A DNA stretch of 64,000 nucleotides from an uncultured Armatimonadia bacterium (lineage in GTDB: Bacteria > Armatimonadota > Zipacnadia > CAVVLO01): the NCBI GenBank assembly GCA_963749155.1, contig CAVVLO010000002.1, positions 128,001 through 192,000 of the forward strand. Direction: 5' to 3'. This document shows positions 15,800 through 43,678 of the stretch, in pieces; the first letter of the stretch is position 1; every line of letters begins with the position of its first letter. The notes under the pieces were generated by a model. That model did not search any database and was not told where the DNA came from. It saw nothing but the letters and a program-made list of their open reading frames with translations. The position numbers and the translations under genes are program-made.

Positions 15800-16819
15800 T
15801 TATTGCTTGGCGGCCCGGCTTTCGAAACGCAGCCTGTAGGTCCCGATCCCGAAAAGGTCGCCGGCCCGCAGGCTGCGACTTGTTACAGGCTGACCGTTCA
15901 CCAGCACAGGTTGTCCTGTGCCCAGGTCGCGCAAGGAGCAGCGCCCACTCTCGATTGTGAGTTCGCAATGGAAAGGCGCGACCGAGGGGTCTTTTATCAA
16001 GGTGATATCCGCCTTGGGCGAACTGCCCAGCCGCGTCACATGCTGGTAGAGGATGAACTGCTTGCCCGCAAGTGGACCAGTAAGCACATGCAACCAGAAG
16101 GTCTTGGCAGCTTGTTCGACCGCGCTGATAGCGACTCCCACCAGCAGGCCCATTACCGAGAAGCCAATCAGGCGCGACATAAGGCCGCCGCCGGTGACGA
16201 TGGCAAGGGGATCAAACAAGGCCCCTCCCAGGAAGCCACCGAGCAGCCCACCTATCAGGCCATTGAGGATGCGCTTGCCCGAAAGCCCAGGCAAGCCTTG
16301 CCCAAGCCCCACAAACAGCCCCACCAGTGCCCAGGCAAGCGCGCGCACGAAGAGCTGTGTAGCAGGATTGCCACCTTGCTCTCCGCCCCCAAGAGAGGTA
16401 TATGCAGCCTGGCCAACTACGCTGCCGAAGGCGCCCCCTGCCCCGCCAACCAGCAAACCGATGAGAGCGCCCTTCAGGGCCTTCTCCCAAACCCCGCTTC
16501 CCACGCCTTCGGTTGCTCCGAGCAGCAAGCCTATAGGCCCGCCAATTCCAAGGCCCAGAATCAGCATCTCCAGCATCGGGTTGAGCGCCGAGGCAGCTTC
16601 ATCCGAGATGAAAGGCTCCACCGCGCACCAGCTGAGGAAGCCCCCAATCAGACCTGCAAGTGCCCCAAGCAGCACTGGCGAGAAAAGCACCTGAGAAGCG
16701 CCAGACTTGCCTTTGCCGGAGCCCTCTCCCCAGCCAGGGCCTCCCCCAGCACCGACCTGATCGAAGAGATCGCCGTCATCCTTGAAATCATCACTTGTCA
16801 GTATAAGGCGGTCGGGCAC
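15800..16819 (-). CDS. Multi-pass Gly-rich membrane protein with C-terminal FHA-like domain
   Basis: About 6-7 Gly-rich TM segments, then WLHVLTGPLAGKQFIL...LGSSPKADI...VLVNGQPV...LRAGDLFGIG. Confidence 0.85.
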   Translation of the reverse strand: MPDRLILTSDDFKDDGDLFDQVGAGGGPGWGEGSGKGKSGASQVLFSPVLLGALAGLIGGFLSWCAVEPFISDEAASALNPMLEMLILGLGIGGPIGLLLGATEGVGSGVWEKALKGALIGLLVGGAGGAFGSVVGQAAYTSLGGGEQGGNPATQLFVRALAWALVGLFVGLGQGLPGLSGKRILNGLIGGLLGGFLGGALFDPLAIVTGGGLMSRLIGFSVMGLLVGVAISAVEQAAKTFWLHVLTGPLAGKQFILYQHVTRLGSSPKADITLIKDPSVAPFHCELTIESGRCSLRDLGTGQPVLVNGQPVTSRSLRAGDLFGIGTYRLRFESRAAKQ

Positions 16820-17520
16820 TAGTCAAGCACACTCCTGGCTATGGCGTAACCCAGCTGCACAATTAGCTCTTTGAAATTCTTGGTAGAGTCGATGTCTGTG
16901 AAGGTACCGCCCGTCTTCTGCGCCAGCATCAGATAACCTTCAAGGGGCTTCGCGACGACATAACAGGCTAGCCCGCGCTCTTTCAATCCGGTCACTGCAT
17001 CCTCGAGTTTCAGCGTAGTGAAGTCTGTGCCGTCGCCAGCGGTGTGATAACCGGCATCACTAATCAGGATCAGCACTCGCTTGGCCTCGGGCCGGAAGGC
17101 CATCCGCGAGGCACTCATCAACGCTTCAAGCTGATTTTCGGGCTCATCCACGCCACCAACAGCTTGCTGGACGGCCAGCCAGGACTTGAACTCTCCAACA
17201 CTGGGGGTGAGGCTCAGGTCCTCGCGATACACCATCCTGACCTCATCACCGAAGGTCACCAGGCCAAATTTACAGTCTACGCCCTGACCGCTTAATAATT
17301 CGGAGAACTGTTCCGACGCAGCCAAAGTGCCATCGATCTCTTCTCTCATACTGCTGGTTGTGTCGAAAACAAAAACCACGTCCACTGGCTCGGGGCTGAA
17401 GGCCCCTCCCCGCCAGAAGAGCGCCAAAGCGATAAGCCCGGCCCAGCAGGCAACGATCAGCAGCCCAAGGGGAAGGTTGGCAAAGAGAGCTCGGTTGAAT
17501 TCTTTCAGAGAAAAACCCAT
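16819..17520 (-). CDS. Membrane-anchored vWA domain protein
   Basis: N-terminal TM, MIDAS-type DVVFVFDTTSSM, GGVDEPE, LILISDA and LAQKTGG. Confidence 0.9.
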   Translation of the reverse strand: MGFSLKEFNRALFANLPLGLLIVACWAGLIALALFWRGGAFSPEPVDVVFVFDTTSSMREEIDGTLAASEQFSELLSGQGVDCKFGLVTFGDEVRMVYREDLSLTPSVGEFKSWLAVQQAVGGVDEPENQLEALMSASRMAFRPEAKRVLILISDAGYHTAGDGTDFTTLKLEDAVTGLKERGLACYVVAKPLEGYLMLAQKTGGTFTDIDSTKNFKELIVQLGYAIARSVLD

Positions 17521-18635
17521 CAGAGCCCCTCCTTACCCTTGCCCTGGCGCACCCAGAAGACCAGCACTGTGTTGCCCACATGCAGCAAGGCGCCATCTCG
17601 CAGCCTGGCCGATGAGACAGGTTGCCCATCAAGCCCCACTTGAAGTCCTCGCTCGGCCTGCACCTGCCAGCCCGTGCCAGTATGCCGCAGGACGAAGTGA
17701 CGCTCTGCCAGGCCAGGTTCTTTCACCAGCCGCACATCCGCCTCAGGCGAGGAGCCCACCCAATTTTCGGGCTTGTGCAGTATGAACTGCTTACCCCGCA
17801 TCGAGCCTTTGGCCACAGCCAGCCAGGCCTGCTTGAAGACCTCGCCAGCAAGCCCCATCAGCAGTCCAACACAGGCGCCAAGAGCTAGCAGTGCAAGCAG
17901 TCTGCCCAGGCTTGAAGAAGCAACCGCGCCTTTGATAGCCTCAAAGGCGATGCCCCCCAGTAGTCCTCCCAGCGCCCCACCCAGCAGCCCATTGCGCAGC
18001 TTGGCTGCCGAGGTATGCAAAGCCGAACTGCCAATTCCCAGGAAGAAGCCCAGCACCGACCAGCCGACAGCTCGCACAAGTAACGCCGCGGCAGGCCCCA
18101 TAAGATGCCCAGTGGATGCGAACTGGTAAGCCCACTCGGCAAGCGCGCCGCCAAGCGCGCCTCCACAAGCGCCTATCAGCCCCCCCATAAAAGCGTGAGC
18201 CAGAGCCGAAGTGATATCTCCGAAAACCAGTTCCTCAAAACTGCTGAGGAAAAGCCCAATCAGAGCGCCCGCCACCAGGCCATATAAAGCCGTCCTGATT
18301 ATCAGGTCTCCTCCGAAGGAACTCGACCAGGCTAGCAGGATTATCTCTCCAAGCAGCCAGGCGCAAACCGCACCAAGTAGCCCGGCAACCAGCAGCAGGG
18401 CCGGCCTGAGAAGAGCGGAAGCACGACGCGGAGCCACCTCGGGTTTGGCCCAGGCCTCTACTGGAGGGCCAACCGAGGCGCCTGCCGGCTCGAAGACTTC
18501 CTCCTCGCTGAAGTCCTCTGCCCCGAGCACCAGCCTTCCAGAGGCCGGGGGAGGCGCAGGTTCCTCCTCGGCAAAGTCCTCGGAAGTCAACTCCAGTCGC
18601 TCTGGCAGCTCTTCCTTGTCGGGCGTATTGTCCAA
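17520..18635 (-). CDS. Multi-pass Gly-rich membrane protein with C-terminal FHA-like domain (paralogue of 15800-16819)
   Basis: Acidic N-tail, TM block, then WLAVAKGSMRGKQFIL...VGSSPEADV...LRDGALLHVG. Confidence 0.85.
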   Translation of the reverse strand: MDNTPDKEELPERLELTSEDFAEEEPAPPPASGRLVLGAEDFSEEEVFEPAGASVGPPVEAWAKPEVAPRRASALLRPALLLVAGLLGAVCAWLLGEIILLAWSSSFGGDLIIRTALYGLVAGALIGLFLSSFEELVFGDITSALAHAFMGGLIGACGGALGGALAEWAYQFASTGHLMGPAAALLVRAVGWSVLGFFLGIGSSALHTSAAKLRNGLLGGALGGLLGGIAFEAIKGAVASSSLGRLLALLALGACVGLLMGLAGEVFKQAWLAVAKGSMRGKQFILHKPENWVGSSPEADVRLVKEPGLAERHFVLRHTGTGWQVQAERGLQVGLDGQPVSSARLRDGALLHVGNTVLVFWVRQGKGKEGL

Positions 18636-18651
18636 ACCTTACTCCCTGGAC

Positions 18652-19443
18652 CTAGACTGTAGTATCGATTATTCCCTCACTGGCGAGTTTCTGGGCCATC
18701 TGGTCGCGCTTCTCATAACCGGCCTCAAGCGCGGCTTTACTGGCACTGCCGAGTCTGGGAAGTTCAGCAAGCGCCGCTTCATCCACCGGCACCAAGGCTT
18801 GTCTGGCAAGCCCATCAGGCCCGGCCAGGCCCATCAGTTGAAGCAGTTCTTTCATCCTGGCCTCGGTGCCTACAGGACCAAACAACCAAAATCCAACCCG
18901 TCGCAGTCCTTCAGGGCCTTGCTGGAAAGCGCCCAGCTTGCCTTGAACCGGGTCGTGTACCACCGCTACCTGGCCAGGGGCGCTGAAAAAATTCTGCTGG
19001 ATGAACTGGTCGAACTCACTGAGGAAAACCCCAAAGCCCGGATGCGTGTGATACCAGCCCATTATCTTGAGGCCAGGCCAGTTGGCGTCCAGTTCGGCGG
19101 AGAAGGCATTCCAGGTGGCATGGGTGAAGGTAATGTTGGTGTGAGTATGGGTTATATGCTGAGCGGGCAAAGCGTGCTCTAGCTCGATGGCCTCGAAGGG
19201 CGCCCCGCCCGGCAGCTGCCAACGCGAGCGCCTGCCGATTAACGCCCCCCCGAGTTCTCTGCTGCGGTCAGTCATACAGTGAGCGCGCATCGCCGATAAA
19301 GCGCTCAATTTGAAGAAAAGGGGTACCACTGCCGAGGCAGGTCGCTCATACTCGAATACCACCATATCGGTGGTCGCGCGCAGAGGCAACTCCTGCTTCG
19401 GAGCCGCCTCACTCAGGCTGATTTGGAAGTCTTTTTCCGCCAT
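18652..19443 (-). CDS. JAB/MPN+ (Mov34) metallo-isopeptidase
   Basis: ELGGALIG and GWYHTHPGFGVFLSEFD form an intact JAMM motif. Confidence 0.92.
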   Translation of the reverse strand: MAEKDFQISLSEAAPKQELPLRATTDMVVFEYERPASAVVPLFFKLSALSAMRAHCMTDRSRELGGALIGRRSRWQLPGGAPFEAIELEHALPAQHITHTHTNITFTHATWNAFSAELDANWPGLKIMGWYHTHPGFGVFLSEFDQFIQQNFFSAPGQVAVVHDPVQGKLGAFQQGPEGLRRVGFWLFGPVGTEARMKELLQLMGLAGPDGLARQALVPVDEAALAELPRLGSASKAALEAGYEKRDQMAQKLASEGIIDTTV

Positions 19444-19457
19444 AGCCTCTAACCGGG

Positions 19458-19997
19458 CTAACCGAGCTGGATGTCGAAATCGTCTCCACTGGGCGCTGGC
19501 GCCTGGGCCTCATCAAAGAAAACAATATCGATGTCTGGTTGCCGCAAGTCCACATTCTGCAACGGGAACCGGTTCCTGTTCAACTCTGACCAGCGCGCAG
19601 CTTCCGCGTTAAGGGGGCTTTTGGGATTATATTCCTGATAGGTCAGCATCTCGGCGACCTGATAAACGATGTCGACCAGAGTCTCACCGGCCGCCCAGTG
19701 GTCGCCGATGCAGATATAACTGCCAAAGTTGGGGTGCCAGACAGGATCCAGCATCACTGACTTGGGCTTCTCCCTTGGATAATCAGTGTGCAGATATATC
19801 TCGGCGCGGTGGACCTCCCTTGTGCGGATGTTGCCCTGCGCATCGCGCCAAAGCCCCTTAACCCGGTACGTAATCCGATACCGGTCAGGAGGATTGGCGG
19901 GACCAATCGGCTCCACCGTGATATAGGGGTGACCCGAGAACTCCTCTTGCACTCGGCTCCAGTCGGCGGCAAGTCGCCTGAGTCTTGCAACACTCAT
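19458..19997 (-). CDS. Ubiquitin-conjugating E2 (UBC fold)
   Basis: RLRRLAADW, DYPREKP, WHPNFGSYICIG (HPN plus catalytic Cys), W, and YNPKSPLNAEAA. Confidence 0.92.
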   Translation of the reverse strand: MSVARLRRLAADWSRVQEEFSGHPYITVEPIGPANPPDRYRITYRVKGLWRDAQGNIRTREVHRAEIYLHTDYPREKPKSVMLDPVWHPNFGSYICIGDHWAAGETLVDIVYQVAEMLTYQEYNPKSPLNAEAARWSELNRNRFPLQNVDLRQPDIDIVFFDEAQAPAPSGDDFDIQLG

Positions 19998-20026
19998 CTA
20001 CTTCCTCCTGCCTGAATAAAAAACTA

Positions 20027-20947
20027 CTAGCGTTTTATCATACCAAGTAAGCCGGCTGCATTGACCAAAACCGCTTGTGCCTGCCCATATTCATACGAAA
20101 ATTGCTGTAAGGCACCAACGTTTGCGGCCATCTCGGCCCGGCGCAGGTGAGTAACCGCACTTTGCACCTGGCCGACAAACTGCAGTCTCATTGGATTATC
20201 ACGCCCTAGCTGCACCAAAGGCTCGAGTAAGGCTTCACCTGCCTGACGCTCTCCTTCGGCCCTTGCCTGATCGCCCAGGCTCCAATGCTGGGTGGCCAGA
20301 TTGAGGTGATTCAAAGCCTCATCAGCAATTGCCACGAACCTCGACTCATCGAGGAAAGCCGAACCAGCCAGTCCAATAATAATAATTACAACAGCTACAG
20401 CCATTACCGCAAGCACGCCAAAAGCTACCTGGGGACTAGCGCGCCGGCTAGTTGGCCTGGGCCAGCCAGGAGCTGGACGCGCCCATTGGGGAACAGGCCG
20501 GTTGCCCGGCGCGGTCGGCATTACCGGTCGCTGCCCCTGATTTTGGCGCACCTGGGGCGAATTCTCGCACCCATAGGTCGTACAACCGCCGTTCTCCTGC
20601 CAGCATTCCTCGTGATGGGGGATACCGCAGGTAGGACAAACGATACTCCTCTCCCCAGCATCTATTTCGCACTGACAATAAGGACAATTTCTACCTTTCG
20701 TTGGACTGGCCTCGGACTTCATCTCCACAGGTTCGCCTGGCTCATCGAAGGGAATGGGCGCTGGCGCCGTTTGGGTTGGCCCCAGAGTTATTAGCACCTC
20801 GTCATCCTGGTCTAGTGAAGGCAAATCTGATACGCGTGGCCGTGCAAGCGAGGTCTCGAATATCTCCCCGCATACCGGACACATATAAGGAGCAGGCCCT
20901 GCGTCTCGAAACTCGCGCCTGCATCTTGGACAGACAAGCTCAGCCAT
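20027..20947 (-). CDS. Zn-ribbon + prokaryotic RING + single TM + extracytoplasmic helical domain (putative E3)
   Basis: N-terminal CPRC..CPVC; CPYC-x11-CPTCGIPHHEECWQENGGCTTYGC; TM VAFGVLAVMAVAVVIIIIGL. Confidence 0.8.
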   Translation of the reverse strand: MAELVCPRCRREFRDAGPAPYMCPVCGEIFETSLARPRVSDLPSLDQDDEVLITLGPTQTAPAPIPFDEPGEPVEMKSEASPTKGRNCPYCQCEIDAGERSIVCPTCGIPHHEECWQENGGCTTYGCENSPQVRQNQGQRPVMPTAPGNRPVPQWARPAPGWPRPTSRRASPQVAFGVLAVMAVAVVIIIIGLAGSAFLDESRFVAIADEALNHLNLATQHWSLGDQARAEGERQAGEALLEPLVQLGRDNPMRLQFVGQVQSAVTHLRRAEMAANVGALQQFSYEYGQAQAVLVNAAGLLGMIKR

Positions 20948-20953
20948 ATATCC

Positions 20954-21640
20954 TCAGTCGGGCACCTGCTCTGATGCTTCGCTTCGGCCGGTCCTCAAAG
21001 GGGCTGGTTGGCCTCTCGCGTTGCATCCGTATGCGGCACAGCCTGCATTTTCGCTCCAGCAGTCGAAATGATGAGGCAGTCCGCACTTGGGGCAAAACAA
21101 CACCACATCGCCTCGCTCGAAAGGGCTCAGGCAGTAGGCACAAATCTGCCCTGCCACTTCGTCGCCAGCTATCACGAGGTCATAACCTGAATGCCTGAAA
21201 CTCGATGCTACTCCTGTATTGCGCGCGGTCTTGATATGAACGAACAACTGCTGTCCCTGGGGCGACACCAGATGCCACAAGACCAGGCCCCACAGTATAG
21301 AGACAAGCGTCATTGCGCCCAGGGCGAATCCCTGCCAGAGACCGTACGAGAGCCCACCCCAGACTGCAAGCCAGAGCGTAAAAATCCCTGACAGTATGCC
21401 GCTGAAAGGGTCTTCGGAATCGATAACCACATCGCGCAGCTCGGTCCAGGTCACTCGCCGACGCCGCGCAAGTATCACTGGCACAGCGAGCGCCACCAGC
21501 ACTCCCGCCAGGAGGAGCGGCCAGGCGAACACCGTTCCAATGAGCGAGGCGCCCAAGGCGATAAATCCGCCAGAAGCCACGAACAGCAACGCGAAGGCAA
21601 GACCTCCGCGCAGCTCCCTGGAGCCAGACTGACTGCGCAC
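20954..21640 (-). CDS. 4-TM protein with C-terminal prokaryotic RING (putative E3)
   Basis: Four hydrophobic segments, then CAYC-x11-CPKCGLPHHFDCWSENAGCAAYGC. Confidence 0.8.
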   Translation of the reverse strand: MRSQSGSRELRGGLAFALLFVASGGFIALGASLIGTVFAWPLLLAGVLVALAVPVILARRRRVTWTELRDVVIDSEDPFSGILSGIFTLWLAVWGGLSYGLWQGFALGAMTLVSILWGLVLWHLVSPQGQQLFVHIKTARNTGVASSFRHSGYDLVIAGDEVAGQICAYCLSPFERGDVVLFCPKCGLPHHFDCWSENAGCAAYGCNARGQPAPLRTGRSEASEQVPD

Positions 21641-21718
21641 TATACTCCACCGGGCACAGGCGGCCTTAGCTGGCCTGACGCGCCCCCTCTATCATATCAA
21701 ACAGGTGGCGTGTAGGGG

Positions 21719-22351
21719 CTACGTTCCGACCAGAGAAGGCAATCCGCAACACAGGCACGTAAAGAGCAGTATCACCAGTGAGTACACCAGCAGGCTGCGA
21801 CCAAAAGCTCTATCCTCAGGATGGCGCTGCCCCATCAGGATTGCGCCGCCGACAATTCCAGCAAGAGGGCCGATCCCGGTAAAAGCCAGCAGCAGAACCA
21901 TTATGTAGAAAATAGTCCTGACTGCCGCCGGGATCGCCGGCTGTGGCCTCGTCCCTCTGGCAGACCCCCTGTCCCACTGGTCGCCCCGCTGGTCGGACGG
22001 ATAGGGATAGGGCGGCGCCTCTGGACTACGCGGAGCAGTAGGTTCGGTGCGCCCAGCCAGAGCGCGCGCCTGAGGGCTTTCGCTGCAGCCATAAGTTGTG
22101 CAACCCTCGTTCTCTCGCCAGCATTCGAGGTGATGCGGGGTAGCGCAAACTGGACAGCTATGAGTCTGATCTGAAGGGCCAATCTCACTTTGGCAATACG
22201 GACAGAGTTTGCCCACTACGCTTGCTGGCGCCTCTGGCTGGCGAGGGGCTGCGGGCTGCCTTGTAAACATCAACTGGCAATGGGGGCAGAAGTGCATCTC
22301 CCCCGGCTCGTCCTCAAAATTCTGGTTGCAGCGTGGGCACTGGACCTGCAA
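21719..22351 (-). CDS. Zn-ribbon + prokaryotic RING + C-terminal TM segments (putative E3)
   Basis: CPRC..CPHC; CPYC-x11-CPVCATPHHLECWRENEGCTTYGC; Pro-rich linker; 2-3 TM helices. Confidence 0.8.
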   Translation of the reverse strand: MQVQCPRCNQNFEDEPGEMHFCPHCQLMFTRQPAAPRQPEAPASVVGKLCPYCQSEIGPSDQTHSCPVCATPHHLECWRENEGCTTYGCSESPQARALAGRTEPTAPRSPEAPPYPYPSDQRGDQWDRGSARGTRPQPAIPAAVRTIFYIMVLLLAFTGIGPLAGIVGGAILMGQRHPEDRAFGRSLLVYSLVILLFTCLCCGLPSLVGT

Positions 22352-22369
22352 GTAGCAGTTCTCCTTACA

Positions 22370-23059
22370 CTAGCTCTTGAGCCATAAGGCAAAGCCGCGC
22401 AGTAACGCCAGTTCTACCACTCCAAGCAAAATCAGCAACCCCAGGGTGCGCAAGGGAGCTTTCCTCAGCATACTGATGCCCGAGGTACGTCTGTCATGCA
22501 GCGCGAGCGCTGCCAGGTTGATTAGCGCCCCTGCAAGGAGCACCCCAAGCAAACTGAGTCCATCGAGCACAATCCAGCCTGGTCTGATAAGCAATACCAA
22601 CAGGCTGACCCCAGCCAGTGTAACCAGACCAAGCCCAAAGGGTTCCCAGACAGATTTGAACATTGGGCGCCGCGGGGGCCTGGCCGGGGCATGGTTAATA
22701 ATAACCAGCAGCAGACTGGCCAGGGCAGGCCCGGCGAAAGCCCCTGTTGCCAAACGGGTCAGGTTGTCAGTTTCTCTGAAGCCCAGACCAGCAGAAATAG
22801 CATCCAGCCCCATCGGTGCAAGTAAAGCCAGCAAGGCAAGCATACGCCAGACATCGCCTGGATAGTCGGCTTTCGCGCGCCCAAGTGCAGCCAGAAGGAG
22901 CACTCCGACAACAAGTCCCAGATGCACTCCCGTGCAACGCGCGCAGAGGGCCAGTTGCACTTCGCCAGGAGCGAAGGAGTGGCTGGGCATCCGATGGCAT
23001 AAACAGGCGCCTAGCTGATCAGCGCTTTGCCGAAACAACTCGACCCACTCGGGAGCCAC
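22370..23059 (-). CDS. DUF2085-type membrane protein
   Basis: LCHRMPSHSF...LCARCTGVHLG...PMGLD...NLTRLATG; multi-TM. Confidence 0.8.
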   Translation of the reverse strand: MAPEWVELFRQSADQLGACLCHRMPSHSFAPGEVQLALCARCTGVHLGLVVGVLLLAALGRAKADYPGDVWRMLALLALLAPMGLDAISAGLGFRETDNLTRLATGAFAGPALASLLLVIINHAPARPPRRPMFKSVWEPFGLGLVTLAGVSLLVLLIRPGWIVLDGLSLLGVLLAGALINLAALALHDRRTSGISMLRKAPLRTLGLLILLGVVELALLRGFALWLKS

Positions 23060-23061
23060 AA

Positions 23062-24074
23062 TTACGTCCCAGCCGGCTGCTCGCCGCTCGCAGGAAGAAT
23101 CAGTAACCGCCCTGGCAACAATCTGTCAGGATTCACAATCCCATTCAGCCTGGCAATTTCCACCCAGCGCTCGCGAGCCCCGAGTTTTTGCTCCGCTATA
23201 CTGCTTAAGGTATCGCCGGCGCTACCTGATAGATTTGGTAAACCGCCTCGGCTTGGGGTTGAACGGCAGTTGGAGCAGGCTCGGTCTGTACGCCCGCAGC
23301 AATCGGTGGAGGGAGCTTGGCCAGTTCAGCCTGGGCCGCATAGAGTTTGATTTTTACATCTGACAATTCAGTTTCCAGACGCTGGACCCTGGTTGTCAGC
23401 GCAAGCAGCAGCACGCAGGCAGCCAGCAAGAGCGCCCAGGGAGCCCAGAGGGCCAACCTCGAGGCCGGTTGCGCAGCCGGCTGAAGGGCCTCGGGCGCCA
23501 GCCCCTCGTGCACCAGGTGATAGCCGGGCAGCAGTTCAGGCCCTGAGTCGGTATTTCCGAAAAAGCCTTGTTCTTTGGCCCGAGGGTCGTAAACCAGCGC
23601 CACCTGAGAGGGCATATTGAAAAAATTGCCCTGGATAAAAAGGTCGTGACCTGACAGGAATATGCCGAATCCAGGATGAGAGTGCACCCAGCCGACGACT
23701 TTCTGGTCAGGATAGTCGGCTTCCAGTACCTCATAAATGTGGTTCCAGGCTTCGTGGGTGAAGGTAAGGCTGGCTCTGCGCGAGTCGGCGCCCTCGGCGG
23801 CGATCATCCCAGTCACATGGATGTGCCAGCGCCCGCGCTTTTCGTGGGAAGTACCCACTAGCACCCCGCCCAGCTCATTGGAGAGATCCTGACTAAGGCA
23901 GGCGACGATCTGATCCCAGACCGGGGCGTCCAGATAGACTTGTACGCGCGCGGACTCAGGCTGTCCAATAGCCTCGCAGTGTTCGGGAGCAGGCAGTTTG
24001 GAGGCAGAGCCTCCCCCGCCCTCTACGGCAGGGGCAAGCTCTAATTCGAAGCCTTCTTCGTTGTTATCAGTCAT
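23062..24074 (-). CDS. JAB/MPN+ peptidase - TM - coiled coil - LysM (frameshift near 23218)
   Basis: ELGGVLVG and GWVHSHPGFGIFLSGHD; TM WALLLAACVLLLAL. After a frame change it reads YQVAP/GDTLSSIAEQKLGARERWVEIARLNGIVNPDRLLPGRLLILP (LysM) to TAA at 23062, abutting the next start at 23059. Confidence 0.85.
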
Positions 24075-24078
24075 CTGA

Positions 24079-25410
24079 TCAGATTCTCGACAGGTTGCGC
24101 TGGATACTGGCAGGCTTGCGTTTATGCTCGAGGCGAGGCTCCATACTGGTCGCCAGCGCCCCAAGGGCGCGAGCGCGATCCGCGGCCAACAAGTAATGCT
24201 TCATCTCGAGTCCTACCCGCGCGGTCACGATGTCGTAGAGGGGCAGGCCAATCTCAGCCAGTGTCATATCGCCGAACTCTTCGGTCCCGCTGTAGGTATG
24301 AGCCAGCTCGGTATCGCGCGCTTCTCCACAGCCCGGGCACCTGGCATCTTTTTCGGACAGTCTGCCAAGCAGTTTGAAAACAGGTTCTCTTGTTCCGCAC
24401 TTTTGGCACAGGAAGGCCGCAACCAGCTCGCGGTCCAGTTCTACCAGCGCCTCAGGTCCCAGATCAGTTCTGGCCCGTTCCAGCAAAGCGTTGAAGGTCA
24501 GGTCAGCGACTCCAGCTTCAAGGGGGATTACTTCCTCAAAGGTAAAATGGGACAGGCAATCTTCTTTCCTTGGATAGTCTACAAGGAAAGAATCGTGAGT
24601 CAGCCCGTTAAAGACCCAGCCCTTGCCGTAAAGCACAGGGAGTTCGGGGCGAGCGTGCAAAAGTTTTAACGCCTCCAGCACTTGTACACCTGCCACGATG
24701 GAAGCACTGGTTGGAGTTGTCGGCACCTTCCCCTCGAGCAACTGGTCCCGGCTGAGCAGAGCGCAGGACTTGCGAGCCGCCAGCAGCTTGGTGTCGAATT
24801 CGTTCATCGTGCATTCATAGCAAGACGAGTCCGGTGGCACAAAAACTCGCGCGATGCCATTCAACACTTCTATGGCGCCATCTATCCAGGGAGTGTTTAC
24901 CTTCCAGCAGGCCTGGTTGATACCGAGTCTGGCCTCCCGGTTGTCAAGCCCGCCGAGGACGACATCCATCTCCAGGAAAACGCCAAGCCCAATATCGGTC
25001 AGCACATTGCCCTGCACCGCGTGAACCGCACAGTCAGGGTTGATTTCCCTGACTGTTTCAGCAGCCACTTCGGCCTTCGGGCGTCCCTCGTCTTCGACCC
25101 GGAATAAAACCGAACGCGTAAGGTTGGAATGCTCTACCGTATCGAGATCAAGCACCAGCAGATTGCCCACGCCAAGCAAAGCGAGATTCTTGAGCAGCTC
25201 GTTTCCAAGCGCGCCGGCGCCTACAATCAGCACCGAAGAAGCTTTGAGCAGAGTTTGATCCCACCAGGGCACGAGGAAGAAACGCGCATAACGGCTGGCT
25301 TCTTCCTCCATACTGACAGTGAGAGGCCCGCCTTCCGCGTCCTTGCCCGAAGGCGCGGGCGCGGGGCCTTCTACAGCAGCCCCGAGCTCAATATCAAAGT
25401 CATCACTCAT
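24079..25410 (-). CDS. ThiF/E1-like ubiquitin-activating enzyme
   Basis: VGAGALG, DLDTVEHSNLTRS, KAEVA, GLDNREAR, CYEC, candidate catalytic Cys in RKSCALL, and an extra CQKC..CPGC Zn ribbon in a C-terminal extension. Confidence 0.93.
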   Translation of the reverse strand: MSDDFDIELGAAVEGPAPAPSGKDAEGGPLTVSMEEEASRYARFFLVPWWDQTLLKASSVLIVGAGALGNELLKNLALLGVGNLLVLDLDTVEHSNLTRSVLFRVEDEGRPKAEVAAETVREINPDCAVHAVQGNVLTDIGLGVFLEMDVVLGGLDNREARLGINQACWKVNTPWIDGAIEVLNGIARVFVPPDSSCYECTMNEFDTKLLAARKSCALLSRDQLLEGKVPTTPTSASIVAGVQVLEALKLLHARPELPVLYGKGWVFNGLTHDSFLVDYPRKEDCLSHFTFEEVIPLEAGVADLTFNALLERARTDLGPEALVELDRELVAAFLCQKCGTREPVFKLLGRLSEKDARCPGCGEARDTELAHTYSGTEEFGDMTLAEIGLPLYDIVTARVGLEMKHYLLAADRARALGALATSMEPRLEHKRKPASIQRNLSRI

Positions 25411-25413
25411 CTG

Positions 25414-25683
25414 CTAACCAGCCGTGACTTCTGGCTGCAACCGCATCACGTCGCCATCCTTCACGCCAGCGTCGGCAAGGCTTTCGTCGTCCGTAAGTTG
25501 CTTGCCCGACTGCTTGTGGACCACTTTGTAAGAGAGCGGTTGGCCGTCAGGGCCGGTCGCCGGCAGTTTCATCATCTGCACAAGCTTGGCAACAATACGA
25601 CGCACCGCTACATCATCCGGCACGGTCGCCTGCTGTTCTTTGTTGCCAGTTACATCAATTATGGTCACGTTGACCTGTCCCAC
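25414..25683 (-). CDS. Ubiquitin-like protein (YukD/EsaB-type beta-grasp) ending in Gly
   Basis: 89 aa; VNVTIID, VPDDVAVRRIVAKLV, GKQLTDDESLADAGVKDGDVMRL, C-terminal PEVTAG; AAGGAGG RBS. Confidence 0.9.
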   Translation of the reverse strand: MGQVNVTIIDVTGNKEQQATVPDDVAVRRIVAKLVQMMKLPATGPDGQPLSYKVVHKQSGKQLTDDESLADAGVKDGDVMRLQPEVTAG

Positions 25684-25695
25684 TGCTGGCCTCCT

Positions 25696-26706
25696 TTAGT
25701 GAAGCTGGATGTCTATATCATCCAAATTTTCTTCTGGTTCTTCGCGTGGCGCCTGAGGTTGCGGGGTTGTCGGCCCGCCGAAATGGATCTCGGGCTCAGG
25801 CCCCACCTCCTGCGGTTGGACTGGCTGCTGGCCTGGCATCGGAGTGTGCGGGCCTTTCTTCATGAACAGCCAGGTGATTACCGTTGCAATCGCCATTATG
25901 ATGAATATGACAAGTACCCAAACCGCCGGATTGGCGGGAGGCTTTTCTTCGGCTGGCACTTCAGGCACATCGGTCTCAGGAGGGCTGGGAGTCTCGCCCG
26001 CCGGAGGCCTGGCGCCTTCGACAAGCTTAAGGCTGAATTGCTTATGACTTGGGACTACCAGGGCTGAGACGCCTTGCTGATTGAGCAGCTTCAACAAGTC
26101 GTTGCTTGGCAGGGCAAAGCCCATACCCTGGGCGCCTTTCAGTACGCGCACAGCTACCCCCAGCACCTCGCCCTGCGAGTTGAGCAGCGGTCCACCACTG
26201 TTGCCAGGATTTAGCGCCGCATCTGTCTGCAGGAATGGCTGGTCCTTTTCTTCCGAAGGCAAGGAGCTGATGATGCCCCGAGTAGCCGAATCGATGGCAA
26301 AAGGCGAACCAATCGCAACGACTGAATCGCCCTGCTTTACGCTTGCCGAATCGGCAAGGGCCAGTGCAGGCGAATTGTCCACCGGGACTTTCAGCAACGC
26401 CACGTCGGCCTTCTCATCCCGGAAGGTTACCTGGGCCTGGGTCTTCTTCTTGCCGTATAACTCGACATCCACCATCGGATGCCCGCCTACGACATGCGCG
26501 CAGGTCACCGCGACGCCATCGGTGTTGATGAAGAAACCAGTGCCAATCCGTTGCTTGCCCTCTTCATCTACCGAGACCTGAAGGACAGCTGGTTTGGCTC
26601 CTTCAATCAGGGCAGGGGTCGGCTTGTCACCAGACTGACAGAAGGCCGGTAAGCCTGAAATCGTTATCCAGCCAGTAAGGAGCATTGCGAGCACTAGCCA
26701 CTTCAT
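25696..26706 (-). CDS. Membrane-anchored trypsin-like (S1C) serine protease without PDZ
   Basis: Signal peptide; TCAHVV, DVALLK, QTDAALNPGNSGGPL; C-terminal TM and a Pro/acidic cytoplasmic tail. Confidence 0.9.
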   Translation of the reverse strand: MKWLVLAMLLTGWITISGLPAFCQSGDKPTPALIEGAKPAVLQVSVDEEGKQRIGTGFFINTDGVAVTCAHVVGGHPMVDVELYGKKKTQAQVTFRDEKADVALLKVPVDNSPALALADSASVKQGDSVVAIGSPFAIDSATRGIISSLPSEEKDQPFLQTDAALNPGNSGGPLLNSQGEVLGVAVRVLKGAQGMGFALPSNDLLKLLNQQGVSALVVPSHKQFSLKLVEGARPPAGETPSPPETDVPEVPAEEKPPANPAVWVLVIFIIMAIATVITWLFMKKGPHTPMPGQQPVQPQEVGPEPEIHFGGPTTPQPQAPREEPEENLDDIDIQLH

Positions 26707-26748: not shown

Positions 26749-26777
26749 AGTATAAACGACCCTGGGCTACCCGACAA
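26749..26777 (-). promoter_or_regulatory. Putative sigma-70 promoter of the Ubl operon
   Basis: Minus strand TTGTCG-N17-TATACT, about 40 nt upstream of the protease ATG. Confidence 0.55.
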
Positions 26778-29908: not shown

Positions 29909-30004
29909 TTGGCCTTCTGCAGCTTTCTTTCCACGTTCTGTGGGCAGGTTATGCTTCCTTCCTGCCGAAGAGATGAACCCAACTCCGCGGTCAGGAGGTT
30001 CACA

Positions 30005-33000: not shown

Positions 33001-33382
33001 TTCACTTGGCCAGACTGACGATGATTTCGACAGCGCAACTCTCGTGGGAGAACATCCTCTTACCACAGGCCTCACCAGCAAGCTCAGGGCCAGCAAAATC
33101 GTAAATGACGCTCTGATACCTGGCGAGGGTTGGACTGGCCTGTCCGATCCTTGTGGTCTGGCTGTGCGCGAGTGGGGCAAAGGTTATATAATCTCGGTGC
33201 AGTTCCGGCTTGAAGACCTGCAAGCTGTGGCTTCAATGCGGCGGCTTGCGCGCAATATAATCGGCTTTCTGCACCTTGAGCCTGGCCAGGATGAAGTGCT
33301 TGTGATCGATCCGGGCAATGGCGCGGCTCGCTCGTTGTTCGAGGAACTCGGCTTCAAGCTGGCATATCTTACAGAACTCTGA
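30005..33382 (+). CDS. Large secreted putative glycoside hydrolase (GH67/GH115/GH20-like N-domain + TIM barrel + Ig-like domains)
   Basis: AGGAGG RBS and signal peptide; EAEGYLL...GADAVGLMYGALEL...PKVKLRG; LLDLMARSRLNWL; AHDRGIKV. Confidence 0.55.
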   Translation: MLRLRAWTVCLVIALFTVRLPASADSICLVLDTLPSGPAAFGLAELETACKQFELEVMLQPRPEPETPSVVLGIQGKSTLAQQLAEEADLEPVTEAEGYLLAAVRPDLTVCLGADAVGLMYGALELVDRLGLEGLAGLQPAEPVRAQPKVKLRGVNEFLNVPRSEGEDWYFLHEDFWTGLLDLMARSRLNWLDLHGMYDIDTTWFPNIYPYFIKSDTFPDAGLPPSQMALNLAMLKRILELAHDRGIKVGLMSYQTSWDGPFLPKAPYEATEENLALYTKECVRNLLKVLPELDFIGFRIGESGRSEDFFQSSYLPGLDESGLDIPLYTRTWGARKEKILELGDRYPGRFYIEIKYNGEQYGLPYIVSGGRMAGWRDYSYQNYFSWPTDYKVLWQLRYNGTHRLYRWGNLGDTRRTARTIDFCGAEGVCLEPSMAYYPKNDYMHLPGSSHTYGWGWQRDWAWYELWGRLMYDPDTPDEVFLQHFEQRFGLEQGRYALTGLDSASHIIPWIYRYHCLGPDHRSMAPEYEMGGDLAGFAELSPLDTFVMKSPSESALCDLEGTCDARLGADQFATRLLLIASRTEQLAANLDSVKGANPELDCLSLDFRAQAELARYYAYKKRAAYHFALYLETEDLASASAARYWLGLSHQAWARMAALNAGHYAPLVDQLRMHTPAFTWQKEGELLAGDSALLDEAVSDFMANLPAAELEPEFRSTTLATALPATLPCSFSLTIGTQGEVSETTLNYQLRPAGEEPATWGTRRMRSLDEFQNRAFSVDFSMPELTGELAWYFTCTVAGRQLRYPAEGEFKRPVTQDMTPPVITLDRTSRQSTSEGGKLVRLVVKVDDASKLAELVLAWKPLPSETAWHYAPLAQRDGAWVGEFPLTSEGAQWALRATDEWGNACMWPDFEKETPYIIEEPWAAPAPSPAVPPIALDRLLLPEASGKLKKVALVGREASSLAQASLEVKKALLARVEAGESLIIFNQNWPEGLTFDWLPGSLGQTDDDFDSATLVGEHPLTTGLTSKLRASKIVNDALIPGEGWTGLSDPCGLAVREWGKGYIISVQFRLEDLQAVASMRRLARNIIGFLHLEPGQDEVLVIDPGNGAARSLFEELGFKLAYLTEL

Positions 33383-39140: not shown

Positions 39141-39148
39141 GGACAGAG

Positions 39149-41199: not shown

Positions 41200-41223
41200 G
41201 CTCTCAGTTCACCTGGAGGAATA

Positions 41224-42522: not shown

Positions 42523-42600
42523 GGTTTTCTTATTAGAGTTCCAGGATAATCGCCTGGCTTACGTATCGCAGCCCAAGATGCACCAGAGGTAATACCAGAA

Positions 42601-43662: not shown

Positions 43663-43678
43663 CAGGGAGGAGGGTATT

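Follow-up and report, generated by a model that had tools for sequence, protein, structure and literature searches.

A predicted membrane-associated ubiquitin-like conjugation operon, with a shared acidic motif, in an uncultured Armatimonadia bacterium

Introduction

Burroughs, Iyer and Aravind (2011) reportedly predicted, from genomes, a class of operons that combine E1, E2, RING, JAB and YukD-like proteins. We found no experimental study of an operon of this class in the literature. The characterized Bil and CBASS systems had been said to lack a RING E3, and the accessible parts of their published descriptions agree. The operon that we describe here lies in a window of 64,000 nucleotides (the whole stretch of DNA that was analyzed) from an uncultured Armatimonadia bacterium. 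Because its core recurs at 80 loci, it is a member of the E1/E2/RING/JAB/YukD class. What is newly described is a short acidic motif, DD-phi-x-I-x-L, that several of the proteins share.

Results

Positions 15800-26706 of the window hold 13 minus-strand ORFs, all of which fall into Pfam families above the curated cut-offs (Table 1). From 5' to 3' along the operon they encode the protease, Ubl, E1, JAB1-LysM, DUF2085, RING1-3, E2, JAB2, TM-FHA1, vWA, and TM-FHA2, with intergenic spacings of -1 to 78 nt. These families match the gene set, position and order of the original prediction. A hydropathy scan also reproduced its count of products with TM segments (9 of 13), and Pfam on all 13 genes agreed that no AAA ATPase or proteasome gene is among them. 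Topology was assigned from hydropathy and K/R (positive-inside) counts alone. Judging from sequence, this is a real 13-gene operon for a putative ubiquitin-like tag, its E1 and E2, three membrane RING E3s, two tag-removing proteases, and membrane partners. The placement of a promoter upstream of the first gene is suggestive only: the consensus scan found 3 sites in the region, and 3.6 were expected.

Table 1. Positions in the window of the operon's genes, domains and motifs.
Feature	Position	Strand	Evidence or detail
Promoter-like site	26749..26777	-	Upstream of first gene; consensus scan
Membrane-anchored trypsin-like serine protease	25696..26706	-	Pfam Trypsin_2, E 9e-31
Protease acidic motif DDIDIQL, residues 329-335	25702..25722	-	One residue before C-terminus
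YukD-like Ubl, 89 aa	25414..25683	-	Pfam YukD, 2.8e-13
E1: ThiF adenylation domain, crossover-loop Cys216, Zn-ribbon cysteines, C-terminal domain	24079..25410	-	Pfam ThiF, 1.3e-52
E1 acidic motif DDFDIEL, residues 3-9	25384..25404	-	E1 N-terminus
JAB1: predicted cytoplasmic JAMM peptidase, then one TM (207-225)	23205..24074	-	Pfam JAB + Prok-JAB
LysM domain belonging to JAB1, other frame	23062..23217	-	PF01476, 30.3 bits
DUF2085 polytopic membrane protein, ~6 TM	22370..23059	-	Pfam DUF2085, 7.2e-21
RING1: N-terminal Prok-RING_1, two C-terminal TM	21719..22351	-	Pfam 4.3e-12; C4HC3 at 50-89
RING2: four TM, then C-terminal Prok-RING_1	20954..21640	-	Pfam 2.3e-10; C4HC3 at 167-206
RING3: zinc ribbon, Prok-RING_1, one TM (174-192)	20027..20947	-	Pfam 2.2e-11; C4HC3 at 88-127
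E2, UBC fold, HPN...Cys96	19458..19997	-	Pfam UQ_con, 1.1e-08
E2 acidic motif DDFDIQL, residues 172-178	19464..19484	-	One residue before C-terminus
JAB2: soluble JAMM peptidase	18652..19443	-	Pfam Prok-JAB + JAB; motif E...HTHx7Sx2D
TM-FHA1: acidic N-terminus, six glycine-rich TM helices, C-terminal FHA	17520..18635	-	Pfam Yop-YscD_cpl, 3.6e-10
vWA protein, one N-terminal TM	16819..17520	-	Pfam Integrin_beta, VWA, VWA_4
TM-FHA2: N-terminal motif, six TM helices, C-terminal FHA	15800..16819	-	Pfam FHA + Yop-YscD_cpl
TM-FHA2 N-terminal motif RLILTSDDF, residues 4-12	16784..16810	-	Family type I-x-I-T-x-x-D-L

The Ubl ends in ...EVTAG, so that Gly89 is its last residue. Its identity with 25 orthologues, which come from several phyla, is 52-76%; across that set K53, E85, T87, A88, and G89 are invariant, as is the ending E-x-T-A-G. 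In a set of 43 orthologues, 21 stop at the terminal glycine and 22 continue beyond it, and the latter would need a peptidase.

The catalytic motifs of E1, E2 and both JABs were predicted to be intact, and indeed the residues are present and conserved across orthologues of several phyla. E1 has a GAGALG motif, and its crossover-region cysteine, Cys216, is unchanged in 43 of 43 orthologue rows. Its best sequence matches in the PDB are UBA7, UBA1, UBA3, and SAE2 (E 1e-28 to 1e-24 for the adenylation domain), slightly ahead of ThiF and MoeB (1e-23). On the AF2 model of E1 (pLDDT 86.1), the VIA-align superposition with canonical E1s covers residues 37-411 (293-313 aligned residues), and that with ThiF and MoeB covers 37-288 only. 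The additional stretch takes in the C-terminal domain, which superposes on the UFD at the C-terminal end of canonical E1s. All 92 rows for E2 have His88, Asn90, and Cys96. In the PDB, the E2 profile comes closest to UBE2N, UBE2S, and UBE2K, in alignments that include the HPN-Cys block. This E2 is the genome's sole UQ_con match. There are five RING genes to this one E2; two of them are orphans outside the operon, and the three in the operon all show the C4HC3 ligand pattern. RING3 ends in 114 residues with a predicted location outside the membrane.

JAB1 has the JAMM motif E...HSHx7Sx2D and likely starts at the ATG at 24074, not at the TTG at 24164; this choice turns an 86-nt overlap with E1 into a 4-nt gap. 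JAB2 has no TM segment in the hydropathy scan. A single JAB-TM-LysM gene had been predicted, and all three parts are there, but a 1-base shift near 23216 breaks the JAB1 frame before LysM. The three parts form one ORF in 5 of the 7 orthologues tested. In runs X1 and X3, both from one study, the contigs of a strain that is about 95% alike have one extra base behind 23216 and lack the frameshift. Since the contigs that are identical to the window do not reach this site, the shift may be either a true mutation or an error of the assembly. If the frameshift is real, then JAB1-LysM is a damaged part of the system.

The protease has an N-terminal signal or anchor, a protease domain that is predicted to be periplasmic (from TM segments and K/R counts), a TM segment at 264-282, and a 54-residue cytoplasmic tail. 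Its triad (His71, Asp101, and Ser170) is invariant in 23 rows. The vWA domain probably lies on the outer side, to which the K/R counts assign it weakly. We found no vWA orthologue in 30 relatives of the same class, nor at other loci by phmmer, and single-sequence phmmer did not find the DUF2085 protein at other loci. The two TM-FHA proteins are 31% identical to each other. The AF2 model of TM-FHA2 (pLDDT 86.4, pTM 0.81) has helices across 48-237 and the FHA domain at 241-334, and this domain is nearest to OdhI/GarA (34-38% identity).

The original prediction could be refuted if the gene set did not occur together elsewhere, and the survey found that its core does. Among 161 candidate stretches from species-representative genomes, 119 encode an E2 relative, and the 80 loci that we kept show the core order (Tryp)-Ubl-E1-JAB-...-RING-E2-...-TM-FHA. 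This core (a trypsin-like protease, YukD-like Ubl, E1, JAB, E2, a membrane RING, and a 6-TM FHA protein) spans Armatimonadota, Planctomycetota, Riflebacteria, Bacillota, Acidobacteriota, and others. Operons from Planctomycetota and Riflebacteria combine RING and TM-trypsin in a single fusion protein (3 of 3 such proteins scanned).

The acidic DD-phi-x-I-x-L motif, a short beta-strand, is common to the N-terminus of E1, the C-terminus of E2, the cytoplasmic tail of the protease, the JABs, and some RINGs. Going by sequence counts, it is conserved in the Armatimonadota-type variant of the operon and rare in background ORFs. By a fixed rule, it is present in 47/60 E2 C-ends and 19/34 E1 N-ends from Armatimonadota-type loci, as against 0/32 and 0/14 from Planctomycetota-type loci. 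The same rule finds it, in Armatimonadota-type loci, in 18/25 protease C-ends, 28/77 JAB N-ends, 18/60 RING N-regions, and 0/30 Ubls; the background is 16/1319 ORF N-ends and 6/1319 ORF C-ends. By eye, all 25 TM-type protease orthologues have a like motif within their final 12 residues. All 23 rows of E2 alignment A1 have the motif as well, and it is doubled in 5 of them. Genome-wide, the strict motif is at the C-end of just 5 of 3433 ORFs, and 2 of those 5 are in the operon. Because the motif is almost absent from Planctomycetota-type operons (1/118 termini counted), the core chemistry does not need it.

Discussion

We think it probable that the operon encodes a membrane-organized Ubl conjugation system with a cellular role at the envelope or in membrane proteins. 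The original prediction of a three-tier, E3-dependent system that links the outside to Ubl tagging inside holds up in its parts: sequence supports the presence of every component of an E1-E2-RING cascade along with two JAMM peptidases, the residues are conserved, and a membrane-spanning layout is predicted. Its suggestion of a defence role is weakened.

From the conserved residues, E1 would adenylate Gly89 of the Ubl and load it onto Cys216, and the Ubl would then move to Cys96 of the sole E2. The membrane-anchored RINGs (three from the operon and two orphans) would steer the Ubl onto lysines in proteins on the inner side of the membrane, and the two JAMM peptidases would take the tag off. In relatives with a C-terminally extended Ubl, these peptidases might also mature it. 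Positive-inside counts place the Ubl, E1, E2, RING, JAB, and FHA domains inside. The predicted outer parts are the protease domain, LysM, the RING3 C-terminal part, and probably vWA. Through them, tagging in the cytoplasm could be coupled to the state of the envelope or peptidoglycan.

The acidic motif is probably a docking peptide. Its carriers (E1, E2, the JABs, the protease with its tail, and some RINGs) have it on disordered ends, and there such peptides probably hold the system together. What they dock on is perhaps the Ubl, in a SIM- or UFIM-like way; this seems the most likely arrangement. Complex prediction for the Ubl with the protease tail (286-336) gave weak support, with a score of 0.38, and the best of 3 controls reached 0.02. 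Agreement between the runs is 79% of contacts or more, with a partner pLDDT of 50 or more. In the calibration of the tool, 116 of 157 solved complexes came up to this mark, as did 2 of 215 mismatched pairs, but scores of 0.60 or under account for just 18 of the 157 solved complexes and for both of the passing mismatches. By this calibration, a prediction of the weak-support grade is wrong more often than right, except where the guess had a good prior chance. Alternatively, the motif might dock on FHA domains. In a cryo-EM structure of T7SSb, the contact between YukD and the FHA domains of YukB is non-covalent, according to the accessible part of that report (PMC12637312), and this is a precedent for docking ideas that involve the motif and the Ubl. 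On the other hand, the AF2 model of TM-FHA2 leaves its own N-terminal motif at low confidence and undocked from the FHA domain.

Which role would such a system play? We favor homeostasis of the envelope or of membrane proteins, or signalling, with a logic like that of ERAD, over mobile phage defence. We infer this from the housekeeping flanks, the single-copy inheritance that follows families, the very conserved Ubl, and the two orphan RINGs. The flanks are GH3, FtsEX, M23, and CtpA here, and lgt, lspA, dksA, argH, dnaG, and others at 10 other loci. Within the phylum, we found the Ubl in 32 of 301 genomes, usually in a single copy, and family by family (7/8, 6/6, and 11/15 in some families versus 0/10, 0/27, and 0/31 in others). 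If tagging leads to degradation, nothing in the operon or its vicinity stands out as the agent that would carry it out, because we did not find a 20S proteasome pair in the genome; there is one PF00227 match, and this family also matches the E. coli and B. subtilis controls.

Of the three roles that had been offered, we rate phage defence lowest: the patchy distribution over many phyla implies horizontal transfer and is compatible with conflict systems too, and such systems often include vWA, FHA, and trypsin-like proteases (Kaur et al. 2020, PMC7159879, in its accessible part), but the flanks and the inheritance of the Ubl argue against it, and PADLOC returns only generic matches to E1, JAB, and protease domains.

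The conserved 6-TM FHA proteins are the likeliest candidates for a scaffold, reader, or substrate of the system. Their N-terminal I-x-I-T-x-x-D-L motif aligns across 31 TM-FHA proteins from both operon types.

A complete set of ubiquitin-like conjugation genes

The 13 minus-strand ORFs of the operon (see table) are tightly packed, with intergenic distances of -1 to 78 nt, and each product scores above the curated cut-off of a Pfam family. The families come in the order Trypsin_2, YukD, ThiF, JAB, DUF2085, three of Prok-RING_1, UQ_con, JAB, FHA-type, VWA, and FHA. ORF calls and Pfam thus bear out the gene set and order of the original prediction, which ran from the protease, Ubl, and E1 through the RINGs and E2 to the FHA proteins. 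A hydropathy scan found membrane segments in 9 of the 13 products, the number predicted. The original prediction saw neither a proteasome nor an AAA ATPase in the operon, and this held: Pfam found no AAA+ gene among the operon products, and a search of the genome found no 20S proteasome pair accompanying the operon (PF00227 has a single match in the whole genome). A consensus scan placed a promoter-like site just upstream of the first gene, but the whole scan for promoters and terminators was no richer in sites than shuffled sequence, so we take this site as suggestive at most.

Positions of the features discussed. Positions without a prefix are those of the window; L numbers are handles for individual loci; G000 is the window's genome, with contigs C1 and C3.
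Feature	Position	Strand	Remark
Operon of 13 genes	15800-26706	-	
TM-FHA2	15800-16819	-	last gene
TM-FHA1	17520-18635	-	
LysM domain	23062-23217	-	out of frame with JAB1
JAB1	23205-24074	-	
Promoter-like site	26777-26749	-	
ORF without Pfam family	13829-15790	+	653 aa
ORF without Pfam family	26813-28948	-	711 aa
ORF without Pfam family	29909-33382	+	1157 aa
Cell-wall remodeling cluster	38448-44587	+	
RING-TM-trypsin fusions	L059:8718-9992; L060:8619-10001; L077:8613-10001		Planctomycetota-type
E2s with CxxC-repeat extension	L059:9992-11254; L060:10001-10900; L077:9941-10885		Planctomycetota-type
Second UQ_con genes	L012:3140-3724; L020:3818-4318; L042:1492-1986		
Accessory genes	L048:9516-11201; L049:7273-9417; L042:4498-5331; L016:5495-6658; L016:12034-12900		
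lspA and lgt	L012:1608-2958; L020:1856-3614		
Orphan Prok-RING_1 genes	G000:C3:95690-96523 (L001); G000:C1:317027-317545 (L003)		277 and 172 aa
Split GH38 gene	L003:1743-3033 (G000:C1)		two overlapping ORFs

The catalytic motifs that had looked intact are indeed present, and they are conserved in orthologs from several phyla. The E1 (PF00899, 178.8 bits) has the GAGALG motif, and its Cys216 is kept in all 43 ortholog rows. In the E2 (PF00179, 35.2 bits), His88, Asn90, and Cys96 are kept in 92 of 92 rows. Both JABs have an intact metal-site pattern (E...HxHx7Sx2D), the protease triad of His71, Asp101, and Ser170 is invariant (23 rows), and all three RINGs combine the C4HC3 ligand pattern with TM segments (PF14446, 40.7-46.2 bits vs. 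a cut-off of 29.1). The Ubl (PF08817, 50.9 bits) is 52-76% identical to 25 orthologs; its end, E-x-T-A-G, and Lys53 are invariant, as are T87, A88, and G89 in 26 rows. The Ubl ends at the terminal Gly, as do 21 of 43 orthologs; the other 22 have extra residues after the Gly and so would need a peptidase.

By sequence, the adenylation domain of the E1 is slightly closer to UBA7, UBA1, UBA3, and SAE2 than to ThiF or MoeB (E = 1e-23). The AF2 model of the E1 (pLDDT 86.1, pTM 0.85) aligns with MoeB and ThiF over residues 37-288 (Z 31-32) and with canonical E1s over residues 37-411 (293-313 residues aligned, Z 27-30), where it reaches their C-terminal UFD. Less firmly, the C-terminal domain of our E1 appears UFD-like, as seen in the alignment of the whole model. 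In the PDB, the profile of the E2 is nearest to UBE2N, UBE2S, and UBE2K, with its HPN-Cys block aligned to the active site of UBE2N. As far as can be judged from their sequences, the E1, E2, Ubl, and JABs fit a thioester cascade that would end in an isopeptide bond. They match neither a sulfur carrier nor a YukD that acts only non-covalently. We also considered a protease-Ubl fusion in a relative (genome G001), where a 337-aa open frame surrounds the Ubl gene, and rejected it: this is just an overlapping upstream frame.

Relation to known systems

Burroughs, Iyer, and Aravind (Mol Biosyst 2011) reportedly predicted a class of prokaryotic E1/E2/Prok-RING_1/JAB operons with YukD-like Ubls. Judged by every sequence feature that we examined, our operon belongs to this class: it has the same five core families, membrane-anchored C4HC3 RING fingers, an E2 with a eukaryote-like HPN-Cys block, an E1 with a putative C-terminal UFD-like domain, a YukD-family Ubl, and a conserved neighborhood. 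The copy in the window also encodes a DUF2085 protein, a small TM-vWA protein, and one more TM-FHA paralog. Since the class was predicted computationally in 2011, it is not new; within the literature that we searched, it is experimentally unstudied. That search, which was of limited coverage, found no experimental work on bacterial RING-dependent Ubl operons, and the titles and abstracts of the papers it found that name PF14446 or Prok-RING do not mention a bacterial operon of this kind. (In PMC4678705, PF14446 is a passing HHpred match.)

Like the Caldiarchaeum, Asgard, and eukaryotic cascades, the operon has three tiers, with separate E1, E2, and RING proteins and a JAMM peptidase, which there is of the Rpn11 type. 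The E1 here is closest to UBA3, UBA1, and SAE2 and the E2 to UBE2N, UBE2S, and UBE2K. The ubiquitin cascade of Caldiarchaeum subterraneum has reportedly been reconstituted in vitro. Unlike those cascades, our operon has a YukD-like Ubl that ends in Ala-Gly and C4HC3 RINGs that are membrane-anchored; also, most of its parts lie in or at the membrane, and we found no proteasome partner in the genome. The C. subterraneum gene cluster is described in the available part of a review (PMC11354881).

Among bacteria, the characterized comparisons are Bil, CBASS Cap2/Cap3, and Bub. As these are presented in the accessible portions of PMC11601603 and PMC11601596, they share with our operon a Ubl, an E1, an E2, and a peptidase, which is a JAB/JAMM protein in Bil, CBASS, and type I Bub, but they have no RING E3, whereas our operon has three RINGs. 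PADLOC did not find the BilABCD set: there was one BilD match (30.9 bits), to the adenylation domain of the E1, and none for the Ubl or the E2. In those same portions, the E1 and E2 of CBASS are fused. Here they are separate genes about 4 kb apart, both keep their Cys, and most parts of the system are membrane proteins; the E1-E2 models of PADLOC cover only residues ~30-228 of the E1, and Pfam found no CD-NTase in the operon or its flanks. Bub, as excerpted from PMC11601596, makes oxyesters with a Tyr on the E1 and a Ser on the E2 and has a DUF6527 serine protease; in our operon, we found instead an invariant Cys on both enzymes and a Trypsin_2 protease.

Two other systems share parts with this one. 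In type VIIb secretion, the Ubl is of the same Pfam family (YukD) and is tied to the FHA domains of a membrane protein (PMC12637312, available part). That YukD reportedly is not conjugated and sits with an FtsK-like ATPase and WXG100 substrates (PMC1779556 and PMC12637312, as excerpted), whereas here there is a full conjugation set, and no FtsK/EssC ATPase, WXG100, or EssB-like protein is encoded among the 13 products, the two flanking ORFs, or 24 further ORFs (window 152-45957). The vWA-MoxR-FtsH systems of Kaur et al. 2020 comprise a MoxR AAA+, a large vWA protein, FtsH, a Ubl-E2 fusion, and an EAD1-tagged effector, going by the extracts of PMC7159879. Our operon has no AAA+ gene, its Ubl and E2 are separate, and its vWA protein is a small TM protein.

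Distribution and gene order

Among protein clusters, the E2 has 650 relatives at E <= 0.001. We ran a profile of 23 E2 relatives on contigs from one genome per species, which gave 161 candidate stretches, of which 119 encode an E2; 80 loci were kept. According to the titles of their records, these come from Armatimonadota (including Zipacnadia, WS1, and Abditibacteriota), Syntrophomonadaceae and other Bacillota, Acidobacteriota, a proteobacterium, Chitinophagales, Solirubrobacterales, Planctomycetota, Riflebacteria/Ozemobacteraceae, and Victivallales. The spread is patchy, over more than 8 phyla. A survey of gene neighborhoods had been proposed as a check, and it found a core order that is shared by the 80 loci; Pfam on 10 of the loci agrees.

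We mapped the 13 window proteins on all ORFs of the kept loci with single-sequence phmmer, and two arrangements emerged. The Armatimonadota-type order is (second E2)-protease-Ubl-E1-JAB(-TM-LysM)-(JAB)-RINGs-E2-(RING)-JAB-TM-FHA, where parentheses mark optional parts. The order in Planctomycetota and Riflebacteria is Ubl-E1-JAB-TM-FHA-RING-RING-E2, and one of these RINGs is fused through a TM segment to a trypsin domain (3 of 3 such proteins scanned), which implies that the E3 and the protease are functionally tied. By the same phmmer search, neither DUF2085 nor the vWA protein has a match at the other 80 loci, and no other locus has a second full-length TM-FHA paralog, with two fragments at one locus. 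Of 30 relatives of the same class, none has an ortholog of the vWA protein. Among the genomes that we compared, only the window's genome belongs to its family.

Some features vary among the loci. In many operons of Armatimonadota and Syntrophomonadaceae, a second UQ_con gene lies directly upstream of the protease; it is absent from the window. Accessory genes encode a RING-RDD-TPR protein, three GYF-domain proteins (two of them also with RDD), an M48 peptidase, a PepSY protein, and a YbjN protein. At two Armatimonadota loci, the operon is directly downstream of the lipoprotein maturation genes lspA (signal peptidase II) and lgt. The Planctomycetota-type E2 has a long C-terminal extension of repeated CxxC that looks like many zinc ribbons. 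We considered whether this E2 is anchored in the membrane, a finding that would have hinted that the acidic motif described below has its receptor there, and rejected the idea: the extension is a cysteine-rich repeat, and hydropathy flags one segment in 2 of 5 proteins and none in the other 3.

Membrane topology and the TM-FHA proteins

We assigned topology from hydropathy and K/R counts, plus an AF2 model of TM-FHA2. The protease would have a signal or anchor, a protease domain outside, one TM segment, and a cytoplasmic tail of 54 residues. JAB1 would be cytoplasmic with its LysM domain outside, and RING3 would place 114 residues outside the membrane. The vWA domain, whose side is weakly determined, is probably outside. 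Both TM-FHA proteins would have both ends inside, and the Ubl, E1, E2, and JAB2 appear to be soluble.

The FHA fold of TM-FHA2 is nearest to OdhI and GarA (34-38% identity). K239 and K253 of TM-FHA2 are conserved and, along with lysines in the protease tail, would be first candidates for sites of tagging. The TM-FHA proteins of both operon types share an N-terminal I-x-I-T-x-x-D-L, which is distinct from the acidic motif; it resembles the Thr motif at the N-termini of GarA and OdhI, where it folds back onto the FHA domain of the same protein. The AF2 model (pLDDT 86.4) shows TM-FHA2 with six long helices ahead of the FHA domain and with the N-terminal motif undocked, at a pLDDT of 44-60. Canonical FHA domains carry G-R at a position where the consensus of the TM-FHA family reads G-S-S-P-K, so these FHA domains may or may not be phospho-dependent. 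Foldseek with the TM-FHA2 model gave FHA domains only and left the TM bundle unmatched. In the ESM Atlas, the best scores for the 6-TM part were 0.78-0.82, which is under the tool's meaningful level, and they led to no named family. Because YukD contacts the FHA domains of YukB in a structure of T7SSb (PMC12637312, as far as its available text goes), it is plausible by analogy that the Ubl and the TM-FHA proteins form a reader pair.

A recurring acidic motif at protein termini

A short acidic peptide with alternating hydrophobic residues (DD-phi-x-I-x-L) recurs in the window: it is found at the N-terminus of the E1 (residues 3-9), at the C-termini of the E2 (172-178) and the protease (329-335), at the N-termini of both JABs and both TM-FHA proteins, and in RING3. 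The stretches that bear it are probably disordered. The E2 has the motif at its C-terminus in 23 of 23 aligned rows, and it is doubled in 5. By eye, the motif lies within the last 12 residues of the protease in all 25 TM-type orthologs, with exactly one residue after it in 23.

We also counted matches to a fixed rule (phi-x-phi-x-phi with at least 3 acidic residues in its context). At Armatimonadota-type loci, this rule matches the C-termini of 47 of 60 E2s and 18 of 25 proteases and the N-termini of 19 of 34 E1s, 28 of 77 JABs, and 4 of 18 TM-FHA proteins, as well as the N-terminal regions of 18 of 60 RINGs. It matches none of 60 RING C-termini and none of 30 Ubls. The background is 16 of 1319 N-termini and 6 of 1319 C-termini. 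At Planctomycetota-type loci, just 1 of 118 termini matches (rows summed). A strict form of the motif lies at the C-terminus in 5 of the 3433 ORFs of the window's genome, and 2 of these are in the operon; the other three, which encode DeoR-like, ferredoxin-like, and unknown proteins, look like chance matches.

What does the motif bind? SIM, LIR, and UFIM peptides add a strand to a beta-grasp, and the acidic motif resembles them in form. The Ubl is the sole universal component that never carries the motif. When we predicted a complex of the Ubl with the protease tail, the score was 0.38, compared to 0.02 for the best of 3 controls; of 157 solved complexes, 116 reach this mark, as do 2 of 215 mismatches, but only 18 of the 157 do so at scores of 0.60 or less, as do both of the passing mismatches. 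At least 79% of contacts are shared between runs, and the partner pLDDT is at least 50. This weakly suggests that the motif of the protease tail may dock on the Ubl. The FHA domains are the main alternative receptor. As far as we can check, the motif is new.

What might the system do?

The original prediction described a three-tier, membrane-spanning system that links events outside the membrane to Ubl tagging inside, and it offered envelope signaling, membrane protein quality control, or defense as its role. The design is well founded, but defense is the weakest of the roles offered.

In ERAD, the ligases are Hrd1 and Doa10, and Ubc7 is recruited by Cue1. By functional analogy, not homology, the RINGs of our operon would be polytopic membrane E3s that face the cytoplasm, as those ligases are; a soluble E2 may reach the membrane via a short docking region, and substrates could be recognized or chosen by domains across the membrane. 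Unlike ERAD, the operon has no Cdc48-like extraction motor and no proteasome. Our tentative reading, which we consider possible if doubtful in its full form, is that several phyla of bacteria have an ERAD-like, E3-dependent ubiquitylation of membrane or envelope proteins, in which the polytopic RINGs tag their targets at the inner membrane face, the protease, LysM, and vWA domains read the outside, and SIM/UFIM-like acidic peptides wire the machine together by binding the Ubl or an FHA reader. As no proteasome pair or AAA+ gene goes with the operon, tagging is more likely to have a regulatory outcome or else, more speculatively, to hand proteins over to a membrane protease of general function.

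If this ERAD-like reading is true, then membrane RING ligases, E2 recruitment through short peptides, and modules that read a Ubl would be older than eukaryotes, and the YukD-FHA contact of type VII secretion would be a relic of a conjugation system. More generally, if the cascade works as its sequence says, then its E1-E2-RING E3 hierarchy would be closer to the eukaryotic one than are those of Bil, CBASS, and Bub, in a system that is chromosomal, widespread, and almost wholly membrane-bound. Reconstitution would test the origin of RING-dependent ubiquitylation and the role that it had before it was coupled to the proteasome. What we add to the known class is a putative docking motif, conserved at the termini of the E1, E2, JABs, and protease tail; a universal 6-TM FHA partner with a conserved N-terminal Thr motif; and the behavior of a housekeeping module rather than a defense island.

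We favor a cellular function over a mobile defense island on four grounds. First, the flanking genes here are housekeeping and carbohydrate genes, and at 10 other loci they include lgt, lspA, dksA, argH, a pyrK-like gene, dnaG, and ABC transport genes. Second, the PADLOC matches are generic. Third, of the 301 genomes that we sampled from the phylum, 32 have the Ubl, mostly in a single copy, and its presence follows family lines. Fourth, the window's genome has one E2 and five RING genes, two of them orphans outside the operon, and one E2 with many E3s is the pattern of a general regulatory system. On the other hand, a distribution this patchy across phyla implies transfer, and conflict systems often contain vWA, FHA, and protease modules according to the available text of PMC7159879; both count against a cellular role. 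The two orphan Prok-RING_1 genes have the same C4HC3 pattern; they are distant from the operon and do not neighbor any E1, E2, or Ubl gene.

Alternatively, this could be an anti-phage or conflict system, which would sense infection or envelope damage outside and use Ubl conjugation to block invader proteins, as Bil does, or to free an effector, for which the protease or a pore of the glycine-rich 6-TM FHA proteins would be the candidates. We think that this is unlikely. The characterized bacterial Ubl systems (Bil, CBASS Cap2/3, and probably Bub) are antiphage in the accessible portions of PMC11601596 and PMC11601603, and tri-ligase Ubl systems with a RING occur inside the vWA-MoxR-FtsH conflict systems in those of PMC7159879. 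The spread over more than 8 phyla would also suit defense. And the PADLOC models do touch the E1, JAB, and protease domains, but they touch nothing else: the E1-E2 models and BilD match the adenylation domain only, and there is no match for the Ubl, E2, RINGs, FHA, or vWA. Nor are there restriction, CRISPR, integrase, or transposase genes in the flanks here or at the 10 other loci, and Pfam finds no MoxR ATPase or recognized effector domain in the operon. Within the phylum, presence as a single copy is consistent by family. Finally, defense proteins evolve fast, unlike this Ubl with its high identity across phyla.

A second alternative is that the Ubl is a non-covalent assembly factor, like the YukD of type VIIb secretion, that clamps the FHA domains of a membrane complex, while the E1, E2, and RINGs are regulatory or vestigial. 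A Ubl and a TM-FHA protein are indeed paired in both operon types, Iyer et al. 2006 (PMC1779556) report that YukD does not undergo conjugation, and the structure of T7SSb has YukD bound to FHA domains of YukB (PMC12637312). Yet the terminal Gly, Cys216 of the E1, HPN-Cys of the E2, and the JAMM sites are invariant, which is hard to explain without conjugation chemistry; about half of the orthologs (22 of 43) have a removable tail past the Gly; and the operon has no FtsK/EssC ATPase or WXG100 gene. We consider this alternative very unlikely.

The fourth gene was predicted to encode JAB-TM-LysM, and although these families are present, the LysM domain (PF01476, 30.3 bits) is in a different frame here, owing to a 1-base shift near 23216. 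JAB-TM-LysM is a single ORF in 5 of the 7 orthologs that we tested. Contigs from two sequencing runs of one study (X1 and X3), from a strain that is ~95% alike, have one extra base behind 23216, which would restore the frame. Contigs from run X4, which are identical to the window, leave 23112-23303 without coverage, and no contig from run X2 was placed on this stretch. We lean towards an assembly indel rather than a real mutation, because a GH38 gene in the same genome has its C-terminal domains likewise spread across two overlapping ORFs, which may be another such indel. The start of JAB1 is most likely the ATG at 24074.

Could the frameshift mean that the locus is decaying in this genome and has lost its function? 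The LysM domain is parted from JAB-TM by a single base while the frame of the related strain is intact. Still, the JAB domain and TM segment ahead of the shift are complete, the remaining 12 ORFs are intact with every catalytic residue present, and the split GH38 gene hints at indel errors in the assembly, so decay seems very improbable indeed.

Last, we give next to no credence to a sulfur carrier of the ThiS/MoaD type, in which the E1 would merely adenylate and thiocarboxylate a small protein for cofactor or thionucleoside synthesis: the adenylation domain does resemble ThiF and MoeB as well, but the small protein is of the YukD family and not ThiS or MoaD, it is co-transcribed and co-conserved with an E2, three RINGs, and two JABs, and the operon has no sulfurtransferase, rhodanese, or cofactor-synthesis gene.

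Neighboring genes

Three large ORFs that adjoin the operon or lie near it have no Pfam family. One of them, which encodes 711 amino acids, is on the same strand as the operon and lies 106 nt upstream of it. About 12 kb from the operon is a cell-wall remodeling cluster that encodes FtsE, FtsX, an M23 peptidase, an S41 (CtpA-like) protease, a polysaccharide deacetylase, and a LysM protein.
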